A DNA stretch of 64,000 bases from an archaeon (GTDB lineage Archaea > Micrarchaeota > Micrarchaeia > Norongarragalinales > UBA97): NCBI GenBank assembly GCA_020057405.1, contig JAGVFW010000004.1, forward strand, positions 121,660-185,659, given 5' to 3'. A program made the position numbers and the translations under genes. Positions 13,714 through 44,505 of the stretch are shown here, one piece after another. The notes below the pieces were generated by a model. That model saw nothing but the letters and a program-made list of their open reading frames with translations, did no database searches and was not told the DNA's origin. Each line of letters starts with the position of its first letter. Position 1 is the first letter of the stretch.

Positions 13714-14043
13714 TCACGCTGATTCTGGAATATACCAAACGTGATAATTTCCGCCATTGCTCCACTCGAACTTAACGCGAACATTCGCACCCATGTACTT
13801 GAAGTGCTTACCTGCAGGAAGAGAAATTTCAACTGCCGAATTTGGCATAAACTCCCGTTCAGGAAAAACAACAATATGCTCCGGACGGACCGACGAGTCA
13901 ATCATCTTAAGGCCAGTTAAGACCGCGTGGGCATGCTCGGCAAAGGCCTCTTGCTTTCTGTGAATTGGCAGTGAAAAACGTATTTCAGAAGACGAAAATC
14001 GTGCTGATGATAACGGATGCTTTGCCCAACTCACTAAAATCAC
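13714..14043 (-). CDS. Hypothetical protein (start uncertain)
   Basis: The tracked ORF's 5' extension overlaps the 23S processing stem; GTG at 14043 follows a TTTAAG box. Confidence 0.4.
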   Translation of the reverse strand: MILVSWAKHPLSSARFSSSEIRFSLPIHRKQEAFAEHAHAVLTGLKMIDSSVRPEHIVVFPEREFMPNSAVEISLPAGKHFKYMGANVRVKFEWSNGGNYHVWYIPESA

Positions 14044-14154
14044 CTTTCGTGAGAAATAGCGACGGCAACCACTTAAATTACTTTGCTCAAAGCTACTGCT
14101 AGCAAGCGAAGTCGTATGCGCTTTGTTGGCGAGAGCCGATTTGCTGGGTTTCAG

Positions 14155-14213
14155 CAGAGGCTGTGAAAGTGTAAGGAAGTTTTTAGTGTTGCTACCGAGC
14201 ATTTGAGACTACT
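14155..14213 (-). repeat. 3' arm of pre-23S processing stem (inverted repeat with about 17978-18060)
   Basis: gaggctgtg..gtgtaaggaag..ttttagtgtt..gagcatttgag is complementary to the 23S leader. Confidence 0.75.
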
Positions 14214-14477
14214 CCTTGTCTTTTTTTAATTGCGTTGCAATTAGTGTGAAAAGACAAAGATTATGACCTTTAGTAGCGGTTGACTCACATCTCGCCTTGC
14301 GGCTTGATGCTTACATCTCCGCCCTATCAAACCCGTCTGCTACGGGCGGTCTAAGCCGTCTCGTTTTGGGCACTGCTTCGTCCTTAGATGCTTTCAGGAC
14401 TTATCAGTTAGCGCATGGCTACGCGGCTCGCGTTGACACGACCGCTAGACCAGAGGCGCCGGTTCCCCGTTCCTCTC

Positions 14478-14616
14478 TTAAGCTGAAGACTCGGCATGGA
14501 AAAATTTGAAATGGACCTGCTCGCTTGTTGGACATTCTTTCATTGCAACATATTGCCCAGGAAAGGCGTTGCTAAGATAGTCATCCAGCGAGTGGGTCCC
14601 TAAGCCAAGTTTCCAT
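14478..14616 (-). other. 23S intron, 139 nt, in the sarcin-ricin loop (E. coli 2658/2659)
   Basis: AGUAC|intron|GAGAGGA; BHB AAGU/GCUU with ACA and AAG bulges. Confidence 0.92.
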
Positions 14617-14798
14617 GTACTTAGAGAACCTTACCCTCAGACGGCCAAACACTTCTAGGAGATGCCACCGAACTGTCTCGCGACGTTCTGAACCCAACTA
14701 ACGTGGGACTTTAACGGATGAACAACCCGACCCTTGGTGGCTCCTGCACCACCAGGATGTCCCGAGCCGATAGCGATGTATCAAACCGCGCCGTCGAT

Positions 14799-14926
14799 GA
14801 ATTCCTCTGCGGAAAACATTCTCATGACGGGCGTTAACCTTTTCCTATTTTGCATTCCCTGCAAGCTAAAAGCTTGCGCTGGGAAAATCGAAGACCGAAA
14901 AAGTAACGCGTCGTTTTCCAGAGAGT
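14799..14926 (-). other. 23S intron, 128 nt, in the helix 89 loop (about 2477/2478)
   Basis: GAGUUCAU|intron|AUCGAC; BHB GUUC/GAAU with AUA and UCA bulges. Confidence 0.9.
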
Positions 14927-15096
14927 ATGAACTCTCGGGCGCGACGAACCTGTTACCCCCGGGGTAGCTTGTCTGTCAGAAGAAGGCCTCATTAAAAGGC
15001 ACATTCTTGTTCGTTAAGCCCTGCTTTCGCACCTGCATCCCATTTTGTTAAGGATACAGTCAGCCCAACATTTGTCTTTGACCCTCTACGACGCAT

Positions 15097-15468
15097 GTAC
15101 AGCCCGCAATCCACACACAAAAACTAGCTAAGCGATAACTCGACAACCTGCACTTCCTGCCCGCGCGAGATTTCAACGTATTTCTTGACGTTGACCCGAC
15201 GGGCCTTAGCAGTCTTTTCGAGCTCCTCAATGACGCCATACGCATTGCGCAATTGGTCAGTCGGAACGACTAACGCGTTTCCGCGTATGTCCGAACTGAC
15301 GTTCTTCTGCTTTAGAATCCGCTGGTACTTCTCGAGCAAAAAAGTCACGAGAGCCAGAGGTTGCAAAAGAGCGCGGATGCGCGATACAATGTCATCAAGG
15401 AAGCTTGCCATGCCAAAACCCGCACTGATTAGTGCGGGGTGGCTTTAAAATTGTGTGGAGTGCGCGGT
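15097..15468 (-). other. 23S intron, 372 nt, in the helix 84 loop (about 2310/2311), ORF-containing
   Basis: Removal restores GGCGC-GUCAGAAAU-GCGUC-GUAGAG; relaxed BHB; terminal stem CUCCACAC/GUGUGGA. Confidence 0.88.
15124..15411 (-). CDS. Intron-encoded 95-aa hypothetical protein (no homing-endonuclease motif)
   Basis: ORF fills the intron loop in rRNA sense; TTTTAAAG about 30 nt upstream. Confidence 0.7.
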   Translation of the reverse strand: MASFLDDIVSRIRALLQPLALVTFLLEKYQRILKQKNVSSDIRGNALVVPTDQLRNAYGVIEELEKTAKARRVNVKKYVEISRGQEVQVVELSLS

Positions 15469-15861
15469 TTCTGACGCGCCTGAGTTGAGCTTTGGGCGCC
15501 TTTGTTTTTTTATCGAAGGCGTGCCGCCCCAGCCAAACCACCCATCTGTAGCTGTCTTACGTCTTTTGGACGCAATAAGCAATGCAGTCATCAAATAGCA
15601 GTGTTACATCGTTGCCTATTCCGCCCCCGCGAGGACGGACATAGCGGCTCCTGCTTACGCTACGAATTAACAACCGAATTACAACAACAGACTGTGGTTA
15701 AGCTCCACGGGGTCTTCGTTTCCCCCTAGAAGTCCTCGGCATGTTCACCGAGTAGTAGGTTCGCCAGGTCTAAGACAGGGACAGCGGGACGCTCGTTACG
15801 CCATTCATGCAAGCCGCCAATTAAGCGGCGAGGTATTACGCTACCTTAAGAGTCTCAGAGT

Positions 15862-15904
15862 GTGGCCCTGAGACTTTGCTTGCTGATGTGCGGCAAAGTC
15901 CAGA
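15862..15904 (-). other. 23S intron, 43 nt, in the helix 69 loop (1912/1913)
   Basis: GGGUCUA|intron|ACUCUGAGACUC; BHB GGUC/GGCC with UAU and ACA bulges. Confidence 0.9.
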
Positions 15905-16043
15905 TAGACCCGCTCTTTAGCAGCCCTTTGCTCCCTTGAAAAGGAGTTTGAGGTACTGCCAGTGAGCAGGCGTCAACCTCCGTGCACAACGTTTCCGTCT
16001 TGCGGAGATTTGTGTTTTTGCTAAACAGTCGACGTCCCCAGTT

Positions 16044-16184
16044 TTGCAGCCAACGATGAGCAAATGATTTTGCGCTAGGACGCTATCAACCACATCACAG
16101 AATTGCCGGTAGGTACCGGCGTCAGAGGTTGTTCTCTTTTCCTCAACGCGCAAAAAGGTTCTTGTTTGAATGCCCATCGCGGGT
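16044..16184 (-). other. 23S intron, 141 nt (about 1758/1759)
   Basis: GUCGCAGUG|intron|AACUGGGGACGUCGACUG; central helix GCAG/CUGC, relaxed BHB. Confidence 0.85.
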
Positions 16185-16230
16185 CACTGCGACCTACGAG
16201 TCCCCACTTCAACTTGCGTCTAGTGGAGAA

Positions 16231-16262
<32 letters not shown>

Positions 16263-18188
16263 CCAATATGCCGAATTCCCTTGCCTTAGTTCACCTGCCA
16301 CGCCTTAGTATTTTCTACCTGAGCACCTGTACTGGTTCTTGGTACGGACTCTCTACAGGATTGCAACACCGTTTTCAAGGGCCATTGGACTCAACCCACC
16401 TTGCGGTTTTCAGAACTTAAGCTCGTGCTCCTCTTAACGAGACTTCCGAGCCCTGGTTTCTTTAAATGCCCTCTCGGGCACTGGGCCTATCCACTGGCGT
16501 CCGATGTTACCTTGTGTTACCACGCTCCGTAAAGAGGCAAGAGATTATTAACTCCTTTCCCTGATTTCGACCTACGCGATTACGCTTGGTCTTAGGACCG
16601 GCTTACTCTAGCTCGACTAGCGTTGGCTAGAAACCCTTGCTCTTTCGGCGTCCGGGATTCTCGCCCGGAATAGATGCTACTAGCACCAGGATCTTCATTA
16701 CTACCCGCTCCACAAGACCTCACGGCCTTGCTTCTGGGCAAGCAGTACGCCCTCCTACTCAATCCCGCGGCTCTGCCGCGGTTGCTGCAGTATCGGTGAT
16801 ATACTTAGTCCCGGAAGTTTACGATGCCACAAACCTTGACGGGTCCGCTGTTACGCGTTGTTTAACGGATGGCAGCTTCTGTTCCTACCGCCCCGCTGTC
16901 TATGGAATATGACATCTTGATGAGTAACACTCAGTATATGCTTAGGGACCTTAACTGCAGTAGGGGTCGTTCCCCTCTCGCCGTCCGCGCTTAACTCGGA
17001 CTGGCCAACTCCCAATGTCTACAGCAACCATGGCTTCGGAGTTGGACAAGAAAGTGAGGATTTTACTCCCCGTTCTTTCGAATCCGTCGCTCTACCCATG
17101 GTCCGCCTCGATCGGGGCTGTACTGCGGTACACTTCGGAGGGAACCCGCTATCGCCGGGCTCGTATGGACTTTCACCCCTACACGCAAATCACCCAAGAA
17201 GATATACTATCACTGGATGCGGGCTTCCACCGTCCGGGAGGACGGTTTCACCCTGTTCGCGCGTAGTTCGTTCCGGCTTCGGGTCTGTAAAAAGTGACTA
17301 AACGCGAGTTACCACGTCTTCCCTGGGACCTTACGGCCTTGCGGAATTTCGCTTTCGCTATGCACAATGCTCGCCACTCCCTACAACTCCCTGGCTCTTG
17401 CTTCAAGAAGGATGACTGGACGCCGTTGCCTTGCGGCCCTTTATCGCCCAATCTTCTTGTGGCCAACCAGTTTCAGGCACTTTTAACTAGCCTTTCGGCT
17501 TGCTTTTCAACTTTCGCTCACGCTACTCAATACGCTATCGGTTTCAGATTATATTTAGGGTTACAAGTCAATGACTCGCATCTTCACACCACCTTCTCAA
17601 GCGATGCTACTCTGGAACTCGGCTCACCCAATGAACTACTGCCTACGCGGCTGTCACGCTTTATCGCGCCCTTTTCCAAGGGTCTTCGGCTAAGAACACT
17701 GGTGTTAAACGCCGGTCCGAACACCACATCCGAGCCTCTGTTACCAAAGGCCGTTCGGTTTGCCCTATTCCGCGTTCGATCGCTCTACTGACGGAATCTC
17801 AGTTGATTTATTTTCCTCCGCTTACTAAGATATTTCAATTCAGCGGGTCTTCGCTTCTTCCGAAGCAATTCGGGAATCCCGGGTTAAATGGCTGGATGCG
17901 CCTACCCCGGGCTTTTCGCAGCTTCCCACGCCCTTCGTCGCTATCTGAACCTAGTCATCCACTGGCTGGCTATAGCTAGTAGCCTCAAATGCTCTACTAC
18001 AATCCGATATCTCGGATATAATGTGAACACTAAAAGGCTTCCTTACACCTACACAGCCTCATAAGCTGCCCGGTGCCTTGCGGCACACGAGCAAATCGGC
18101 ACTTCGTTGCGAACACCGGCGGCCAGCCGGACTTACTCCGCAAGCGCATAACGCCCAAAACGGTTTTGACGCCGTCAACGGGCACGAA

Positions 18189-18297
18189 TGGACTCGGTGG
18201 GACTTTCCCCAACCTGCTCTTGCCAGAAGAGCCGGAGGCTTTGAACCCACGACCTCCTGCTTGCAAAGCAGGCGCGCTACCACTGCGCTACGAGCCC
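18189..18297 (-). tRNA. tRNA-Ala(TGC) in the rRNA spacer, with a T-loop intron (59/60, about 18203-18239)
   Basis: 72-nt cloverleaf after removing a 37-nt hairpin insert. Confidence 0.9.
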
Positions 18298-18411: not shown

Positions 18412-19933
<1,522 letters not shown>

Positions 19934-44391: not shown

Positions 44392-44505
44392 TGCGGGGGA
44401 AGGGATTTGAACCCTCGGACCCCTAAGGGACAGGAACCTCAATCCTGCGCATTTGGCCAAGCTTTTTGAACAAAAAGCTTTTTGACCAGGCTCTGCCACC
44501 CCCGC
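44392..44505 (-). tRNA. tRNA-Leu(GAG) with a D-loop intron (21/22, 44453-44481)
   Basis: 29-nt hairpin insert; BHB-like GGUC/GGCC with AAA bulges; mature D-arm matches tRNA-Leu(TAG). Confidence 0.92.

Follow-up and report, generated by a model that had tools for sequence, protein, structure and literature searches.

A selectively maintained gene for a 95-residue protein inside a bulge-helix-bulge-like intron of an archaeal 23S rRNA gene

The 23S rRNA gene and its insert

The analysed window, a stretch of 64,000 nt from an archaeal genome (G000), contains an rRNA operon on the minus strand. Rfam models locate the SSU rRNA gene at 18412-19933, a tRNA gene at 18227-18297 and the LSU (23S) rRNA gene at 14251-17991. 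The LSU match extends over 3741 nt, compared to 2987 positions in the model, which corresponds to a surplus of about 750 nt. In a local alignment of positions 14900-15700, a single block of 373 nt remains unaligned. The consensus structure line draws a hairpin between the stems of H83 and H85, and this block is located in its apical loop. The hairpin is nested in the next outer stem and is followed by a small hairpin. We take this loop to be helix 84 (H84), near E. coli position 2308; the assignment uses the E. coli helix numbering and an estimated offset of approximately 100 between E. coli and LSU model positions. Excision of 15097-15468 restores the conserved loop, and a shift by one A fits equally well. 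On the RNA strand, the insert runs from 15468 down to 15097. The features of the locus are the following:

14251..17991, minus strand: archaeal 23S (LSU) rRNA gene, host of the intron (Rfam RF02540, 2173 bits, model positions 1-2987)
15097..15468, minus strand: 372-nt intron in the loop taken as helix 84 (373-nt unaligned block; abutting flanks in relatives)
15468..15480, minus strand: 5' half of the BHB-like core, with exon helix strand GGCGCGU (15480-15474), central CAG (15473-15471) and bulge AAA (15470-15468) containing the predicted 5' splice site (MFE fold; L004 and L007 arranged alike)
15452..15467, minus strand: 5' strand of the intron basal stem, pairing with 15103-15117 (MFE fold)
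15443..15450, minus strand: TATA-like box TTTTAAAG, starting 39 nt and ending 31 nt before the ATG
15419..15438, minus strand: 8-bp hairpin CCCGCACU-AAUC-AGUGCGGG between box and ATG (fold)
15124..15411, minus strand: gene for the 95-aa orphan protein P0001, ATG to TAG, stop included (dN/dS; homologs P0002-P0008)
15103..15117, minus strand: 3' strand of the intron basal stem (MFE folds)
15090..15102, minus strand: 3' half of the BHB-like core, with central CUG (15102-15100), bulge UAC (15099-15097) containing the predicted 3' splice site and exon helix strand AUGCGUC (15096-15090) (MFE folds)

The site was compared in 68 genomes of the same order, using the 197 nt after the insert as query. 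Matches were obtained in 46 genomes, G000 included. The junction was inspected in the best 30 of these 46 loci, G000 among them, and the other 16 were covered by the protein searches. All 29 other genomes of the best 30 loci have an H84 site without insertion. The exon flanks abut with zero extra bases in 28 of these loci and with -1 in one, and in eight of the 29 the two flank alignments meet exactly at the predicted junction.

The MFE fold has an energy of -164.4 kcal/mol (z = -4.76), and none of 100 shuffled sequences was as stable. In this fold, a 7-bp exon helix is followed by three bulged nucleotides on the 3' strand, the CAG/CUG helix, three bulged nucleotides on the 5' strand and the intron stem. 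Bulges on opposite strands between exon and intron helices are also present in the MFE folds of two related introns, L004 and L007. The same architecture is thus found in all three distinct full versions of the intron, and the sequence of the intron stem differs in each. Conservation of the basal stem with differing sequences represents the compensatory pattern expected of a conserved structure, with three versions being too few for statistics. The 3' bulge reads UAC, CAC or CAA and the 5' bulge AAA or AAU, or AAACC in the L004 fold. The central helix consists of three Watson-Crick pairs (CAG/CUG) instead of the canonical four. A would-be fourth pair is U-U in the window and U-C in the other versions of the thermodynamic fold, from which the geometry seen by the enzyme may differ. 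Because the central helix is one pair short, the motif is called BHB-like or relaxed. After cuts in both bulges, the mature loop has the same length as in the intronless genome G066.

Group I or group II introns were detected neither in the window at the Rfam gathering threshold nor in the intron at E <= 1, and no RNA family matched the intron at these thresholds. Since 288 of the 372 nt are coding, a ribozyme would not fit. Genes for a splicing endonuclease (PF01974, 72.8 bits; a single 407-aa frame matching the catalytic domain twice) and for the ligase RtcB (PF01139, 576.8 bits) are present in the genome. The endonuclease is apparently of a multi-unit type, which presumably accepts relaxed motifs, as has been reported for such enzymes. 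Positions 15097-15468 represent a genuine archaeal-type intron closed by a relaxed bulge-helix-bulge motif.

None of the public sequencing runs contains more than a quarter of the sampled words. Contigs from two RNA runs (X12 record 9, X7 record 26) join 15095 exactly to 15468 and skip 372 nt; since they differ from the window at 4-7% of the letters, they may originate from intronless relatives and fit splicing and an intronless gene alike. Cover of the intron was absent from the RNA runs, which are silent on expression in the window's organism. Both intron-exon boundaries are covered by contigs from DNA runs (X1 record 5, X2 record 20). A 382-nt skip together with 10 different letters is seen in further contigs of X1 and X2, which represent intronless relatives.

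The intron-borne gene and its relatives

The ORF for P0001 fills 288 of the 372 intron nucleotides in rRNA sense. A position within an intron and in rRNA sense is typical of selfish endonuclease genes and speaks against a cargo gene. When the five closest proteins were aligned and used as query, a metagenome scan identified four further loci, L004-L007. No difference was seen between L004 and L005 within the compared 490 nt, and both contain an intron of about 370 nt at the same site. The LSU gene of L004 aligns with that of the window straight through the intron (93.5% identity over 3764 columns). That of L006 aligns through as well, until the contig ends within the intron. L007 originates from a more distant organism; its insert at this site, approximately 348 nt long, encodes a 79-aa protein with 49% identity to P0001. 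The non-coding parts of the L007 insert showed no alignment with those of the window.

Between the window and L004, 36 synonymous and 28 non-synonymous differences were counted over 68.5 and 216.5 sites, respectively (dS 0.905, dN 0.142, dN/dS 0.157; Fisher p ~1e-10). The comparison of L004 with L006 yielded a dN/dS of 0.27 over 55 codons. Values against L007 are 0.33-0.44 with dS near saturation, and dS against the homolog in G066 is saturated. The reading frame is intact in all four complete copies (window; L004, equal to L005; L007; G066), while the copy in L006 is incomplete owing to the contig end within the intron. The P0001 ORF is a real, selectively maintained gene.

The ORF identity to P0001 decreases in the same order as the exon identity to the window, with 77% versus 98-99% for L004, 49% versus 87.5-94% for L007 and 37-40% versus 83.5-90% for G066. 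Downstream of the rRNA operon, L005 and the window share synteny, and the proteins encoded there are 77-89% identical, the same range as the ORF. A divergence in step with the host rRNA and the neighbouring genes fits a retained cargo better than a decaying selfish gene. The pattern suggests that intron and gene have been inherited vertically, and it fits one relocation between a position behind the 23S gene and one inside H84.

The copy in G066 is free-standing. The Rfam LSU call in this genome ends early owing to an insert, and blastn with the window's LSU gene extends the 23S gene to about position 4200 of L003. The 3' strand of the 23S processing stem is located at about 4137-4072. The homolog starts at L003 3961 in rRNA sense and comprises 76 aa, counted from the Met that matches P0008. 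It is located outside the rRNA, approximately 110 nt past the 3' strand of the processing stem, and a convergent gene for a solute-binding protein adjoins its end. G066 lacks the H84 intron, and no BHB or other structure was found around the copy (z +0.39). Another insert in the G066 23S gene carries a 177-aa LAGLIDADG ORF. The location of the homolog directly behind the 23S gene indicates a link to the rRNA operon that is independent of the H84 intron. In every readable context (n = 5), the gene is tied to the 23S gene, with four distinct in-intron sequences and one free-standing copy; these contexts include the close kin window, L004 and L006.

The family is small. Searches of 1.84 billion cluster representatives retrieved five proteins at E <= 0.001, and a set of 5.8 billion proteins yielded eight clusters with a single query or a profile alike. 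The members P0001-P0008 have 76-95 aa, no name and no Pfam domain. Longer or fused forms were not found in these sets, which is weak evidence. Six-frame matches in genomes were confined to G000, with a single copy of the P0001 gene, and G066. Including G000, homologs are present in 2 of 68 genomes of the order, 2 of 7 of the family, 2 of 401 in the phylum sample and 2 of 401 in the class sample; many of these assemblies are incomplete, and incomplete assemblies often lack rRNA regions. P0004 is known from a contig of 837 nt. The contexts of P0006 and P0007 had no match in the genome contigs or viral contigs searched. Six apparent relatives of P0007 on viral contigs are part of a 483-aa protein and were rejected as chance matches (hhalign probability 2.4%). 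As far as searched, the proteins form an orphan family confined to one archaeal family.

These results agree with the first-pass annotation on several points. It had described a 372-nt BHB-type intron in the H84 loop of the 23S gene, for which the LSU alignment, the fold and the abutting flanks in the 29 of 29 loci examined were obtained. The archaeal type of this intron is corroborated by the BHB-like fold, the lack of a group I or II signal and the genes for endonuclease and RtcB. The 95-aa ORF almost filling the intron in rRNA sense was recovered with the same sequence. A comparison of dN/dS among homologs, proposed at that time, gave 0.16-0.27 in close pairs and indicates purifying selection. 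Broken and unconstrained frames in homologous introns, regarded then as evidence against the proposal, were not seen in the four complete copies.

Protein properties and expression signals

AlphaFold2 with the alignment of eight sequences predicted a compact fold with a pLDDT of 86 overall and 93-95 over residues 21-90. Residues 2-35 and 51-70 are predicted as helices, the first followed by a hairpin (41-50) and the second by a long hairpin (73-94). Residues 1-20 reach a pLDDT of 57 only, and in distant homologs this segment is shortened or absent. The model represents a generic alpha-beta-beta-alpha-beta-beta sandwich. Foldseek detected nothing in the PDB at E <= 0.001. In the wide VIA search, the best matches were a designed protein (Z 9.7) and the cap domain of a trehalose-6-phosphate phosphatase (Z 8.8). 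The structure matches comprise generic two-layer alpha/beta sandwiches, i.e. designed proteins, phosphatase caps, periplasmic domains of secretion systems and uS10-like proteins. The best BFVD match had an E-value of 3e-3, with uncharacterised proteins throughout, and the ESM Atlas scores of 0.81 are at noise level. The homodimer prediction scored 0.01, without a verdict in either direction. The predicted fold is uninformative with regard to function, which also counts against a cargo gene.

No Pfam family matches P0001. NCBIfam contributed one row far under the cut-off, the best matches in a PDB sequence search had E-values of 0.03 or worse, and PHROG and PADLOC gave matches at chance level only. 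LAGLIDADG families did not match any of the eight family members at E <= 10. The detection of eight clear LAGLIDADG_3 matches elsewhere in G000, used as positive control, demonstrates that such genes are found by the method. An hhalign comparison with the 177-aa LAGLIDADG protein from the other G066 23S insert gave a probability of 0.14%, and no LAGLIDADG chain was present among the best 50 VIA matches listed (lowest Z listed 5.2) or the Foldseek matches. The core topology of LAGLIDADG proteins is also alpha-beta-beta-alpha-beta-beta, the domain being alpha-beta-beta-alpha-beta-beta-alpha. The helix-hairpin-helix-hairpin order of the model would be topologically compatible with this domain; topology alone therefore cannot set aside a drastically reduced relative. 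His and Cys are absent from the four closest members, P0001-P0004, and the family alignment has no invariant His or Cys column. The absence of both residues from P0001-P0004 argues against HNH, His-Cys-box and zinc-dependent nucleases. Profiles of GIY-YIG, PD-(D/E)xK and EDxHD nucleases in Pfam, NCBIfam, PHROG and PADLOC gave no match and the alignment contains no such motif, although very divergent small forms could escape sequence tests. Invariant residues are the acidic E65, E80 and E86 and the basic R43, R71 and K77. The G066-type proteins are acidic (pI ~5.5) and the others basic (8.1-9.75); the acidic members weaken a simple nucleic-acid-binding role. Weak profile matches to ASFV I73R and an ArsR regulator (E 0.03-0.13) were rejected, as the predicted topology is not that of a winged helix. 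P0001 is probably not a homing endonuclease of any known class.

The TATA-like box TTTTAAAG and the hairpin precede the start codon. The hairpin core GC(A/G)CU / AGUGC is kept in all three intron versions (window, L004, L007). In G000, the motif TTTWWW accumulates 28-32 nt ahead of start codons; among the 718 ORFs analysed, its count peaks at 33 for position -30 over a background of about 3-5. Such a pile-up is the signature of leaderless transcripts. The motif precedes the start codon at -39 in the window, -35 in L004, -44 in L007 and -29 in G066. It occurs in the window about once per 600 nt, so that four occurrences are unlikely by chance, but the window is closely related to L004 and the apices of introns are rich in A/U. 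The modal spacing is realised only in the free-standing G066 copy, and the -30 peak itself was measured in G000, not in G066. In the intron copies, the box is located 5-14 nt farther from the start codon than the -30 peak, which would imply leaders of 5-14 nt. A Shine-Dalgarno match to the CCUCC near the 3' end of the 16S rRNA was not found before the gene. A promoter inside the intron is plausible from these signals.

In the first-pass annotation, LAGLIDADG, HNH, GIY-YIG and PD-(D/E)xK motifs were reported missing, and none was found now by motif or family search. The profile, AlphaFold and Foldseek analyses suggested there did not yield a confident match to a degenerate homing endonuclease. 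The box about 30 nt upstream and the hairpin CCCGCACU/AGUGCGGG were located at 15450-15443 and 15438-15419, respectively. The assumption that the gene has its own promoter stays tentative. Each of the four versions has a box in front of the gene, while the spacing in the intron copies deviates from the -30 norm of the genome.

Interpretation and known systems

Taken jointly, a genuine intron, a real gene and the lack of any known nuclease family are held to be true with high confidence. The best explanation overall is a vertically inherited cargo gene linked to the rRNA operon, to which we assign a probability of about 0.5. That this gene serves the cell in connection with the operon may be rated somewhat short of an even chance. 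The cargo gene is suggested by constraint without decay, a divergence similar to that of the host, the lack of spread to near-identical sites and the rRNA-linked position in G066. In the proposed mechanism, the host splicing endonuclease would cut in both bulges and RtcB would join the exons, thereby restoring the H84 loop. P0001 would be retained for cellular work connected with the rRNA operon. As a guess, it could be a small nucleic-acid- or ribosome-associated factor that is made in step with rRNA transcription. Expression may start from the TATA-like box in the intron, yielding an mRNA with a short leader, or may use the excised intron RNA. A cargo or domesticated gene had been suggested in the first annotation. 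Purifying selection, host-like divergence and the rRNA link in G066 sustain this part, whereas the function itself is a guess and the dosage coupling through a circular RNA, also suggested there, would be conjectural. A more specific version, in which the rRNA intron has been turned into a carrier of a host gene, is predicted only tentatively and is rather unlikely in full. The protein would then be a ribosome- or pre-rRNA-linked factor whose synthesis is coupled one-to-one to 23S transcription, and its message would be either the intron RNA after excision, probably as a circle, or a transcript from a promoter nested in the rRNA gene. An equal coupling may be achieved in the sister lineage by the gene directly behind the 23S gene.

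Two alternatives assign to the protein a role in the intron's own life. It may represent a novel class of very small homing or mobility proteins that recognise or cut the intronless H84 site or nearby rDNA and thereby preserve the intron together with their own gene, with the G066 copy as the free-standing form. Location and orientation are those usual for intron-borne nuclease genes, and free-standing copies adjoining the target gene are also known for selfish nucleases. One site is used by versions that are only 49% identical and have unalignable non-coding parts. The distribution is patchy, with the site intron-free in 29 of 29 other genomes (best 30 of 46 matching loci). The alpha-beta-beta-alpha-beta-beta topology, shared with the LAGLIDADG core, and the invariant E65, E80, E86, R43, R71 and K77 would suit such a protein. 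However, no nuclease family matches, His and Cys are absent from P0001-P0004 and the best 50 VIA matches listed include no LAGLIDADG structure. The ORF diverges as its host does, and degenerate copies were not seen. An active element would be expected in relatives with near-identical junctions, eight of which align straight across the site. In addition, 76-95 aa is well below the size of any homing endonuclease known to us. A homing function is considered unlikely on this balance. A maturase-like helper that binds its own intron RNA, at the hairpin or the relaxed BHB, and is needed for cleavage or ligation would explain why the gene persists, since its loss would cripple the 23S rRNA. The non-canonical BHB with its 3-bp central helix, the conserved-core hairpin that closely precedes the start codon in each of the three intron versions, the basic character of most members and the strong purifying selection combined with vertical descent agree with this role. 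The homolog in G066, which is intact without the H84 intron and in unstructured surroundings (z +0.39), argues against it. Moreover, the host endonuclease has two catalytic units, and the multi-unit type is reported to tolerate relaxed motifs; we know of no archaeal BHB splicing that needs an intron-encoded helper. A helper function is accordingly rated as improbable.

Excision might also proceed without rejoining. In that case, the mature 23S rRNA would be left in pieces separated at H84, as with bacterial intervening sequences, and the excised part would contain the ORF. The H84 loop is located at the surface, and breaks are tolerated there in some organisms. The presence of an RtcB gene and of RNA-run contigs with the exact joined sequence, though from relatives, opposes such a fragmentation, and archaeal BHB cleavage products are normally ligated. 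It is given very little credence. Least credible is a chance open frame in a structured intron that yields no protein. Other frames of the intron, antisense ones included, are fairly open too, but a dN/dS of 0.16, with 36 synonymous against 28 non-synonymous differences, brings this explanation close to refutation. The frame is furthermore kept at 49% (L007) and 37-40% (G066) identity, and AlphaFold predicts a compact fold (pLDDT 86).

Archaeal rRNA introns have so far been viewed as vehicles of LAGLIDADG genes or as empty remnants. A constrained non-nuclease gene would represent either an undescribed class of protein for intron mobility or maintenance or the domestication of an rRNA intron for a protein made in step with ribosomes. 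The relative behind the 23S gene in G066 provides a second, independent rRNA-operon context. If the intron carries a host gene, this would be the first BHB rRNA intron with a cargo gene, and also a natural example of rRNA splicing that sets free a protein-coding RNA. The H84 loop joins the list of archaeal rRNA intron sites; to our knowledge, it has not been reported as such a site before. The case involves a single 95-aa protein, a single 372-nt RNA and a single target site and is thus small enough to test. Neither a non-endonuclease ORF in an archaeal BHB rRNA intron nor an H84 intron was found in the literature searched, outside which the older archaeal-intron papers largely fall. Nothing further came from Jay and Inskeep (2015; PMC4496867), and PMC12918454 is not concerned with introns.

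Among known systems, rRNA introns with BHB-type closure and LAGLIDADG endonucleases occur in the 23S genes of Desulfurococcus mobilis (I-DmoI) and Pyrobaculum organotrophum (I-PorI). The window's intron shares with them the BHB-type closure in a 23S gene, an rRNA-sense ORF filling most of the intron and the absence from most relatives. In contrast, the P0001 ORF has no LAGLIDADG motif or family match and about half the size of a single-motif enzyme. It looks vertically inherited and constrained, and a homolog is located outside any intron, behind the 23S gene. Micrarchaeota also harbor group I introns, which have been described at LSU/1923, 1931 and 2593 and at SSU/1498 (Nawrocki, Jones and Eddy 2018; PMC6125680). 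Host group and gene are shared with the present case, and the group I introns often contain a nuclease ORF. None of the sites given in that source (PMC6125680) is near H84, and the window's intron has neither a group I signal nor room for a ribozyme. In CPR bacteria, rRNA inserts with LAGLIDADG or GIY-YIG ORFs occur besides uncharacterised inserts (Tsurumaki et al. 2024; PMC11270868). Common features, according to the portion of that account considered here, are ultrasmall organisms with many rRNA inserts, some belonging to neither intron class and some long ones with unassigned function. Those inserts are bacterial and are not removed by an archaeal splicing endonuclease (PMC11270868). I-AniI is an intron-encoded LAGLIDADG maturase and serves as model for a helper function of P0001, as an intron-borne protein kept because the host gene depends on it (PMC2647301). 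Unlike P0001, whose role in splicing is conjectural, I-AniI is, from what that source presents, a recognisable LAGLIDADG protein in a self-splicing group I intron (PMC2647301).

Inserts in 23S rRNA genes of the order

Inserts at two sites just downstream of the helix-84 loop split the 23S rRNA matches of other genomes of the order. At the site equivalent to window position ~14953, an insert of ~45-690 nt is present in G013, G016, G054, G056 and G011. The site equivalent to ~15043 carries ~47-140 nt in G030, G024 and G028. Inserts in the rRNA are therefore common in the order, at places other than the helix-84 loop. The 23S gene of G066, the order member with a free-standing homolog of the 95-aa intron protein, harbors an insert of ~650 nt, which encodes a 177-aa LAGLIDADG protein. 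A further insert of ~396 nt is located closer to the 3′ end, and because of it the Rfam LSU match in G066 ends ~840 nt too early. In comparison with G066, the window 23S gene contains, besides the helix-84 intron, three stretches with extra sequence of ~141 nt, 128 nt and, in a variable region, 127 nt versus 194 nt.

Inserts and extra stretches in the 23S rRNA genes of G066 (rRNA locus L003) and the window
L003 5377-6444 and 4694-5089: LSU regions of G066 in which the two inserts lie
L003 5792-6325, minus strand: 177-aa single-motif LAGLIDADG ORF within the ~650-nt insert
Window 16039-16226, minus strand: extra sequence relative to G066, inside the LSU gene
Window 14799-14925, minus strand: extra sequence relative to G066, inside the LSU gene
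Window 14487-14613, minus strand: extra sequence relative to G066, inside the LSU gene

Folding of the three window stretches yielded long hairpins, and no long ORF was found in them. They may represent ORF-less mini-introns or expansion segments.

Processing stem and start-proximal motifs

The flanks of the window 23S gene (14157-14207 and 17992-18226) pair as a long processing stem. A 162-aa ORF (13714-14202, minus strand) starts inside the 3′ strand of this stem. In L005, a metagenome locus closely related to the window, this frame lacks conservation, and it is therefore probably not a gene. Throughout the window's own genome (G000), the TATA-like motif TTTWWW shows a sharp peak at 28-32 nt before the start codon (33 at -30; 718 ORFs). 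This spacing suggests leaderless transcripts for most of the organism's genes.

Probable tRNA intron and splicing endonuclease

A tRNA match at 44392-44505 (minus strand) spans 114 nt, compared with a model of 71 positions; judged by this length, the gene probably contains one or more introns. The splicing endonuclease gene of the same genome (G000:C6:129521-130000) shows two catalytic-domain matches in a single 407-aa open frame. This two-domain architecture is reminiscent of the multi-unit splicing endonuclease of ARMAN-type archaea.
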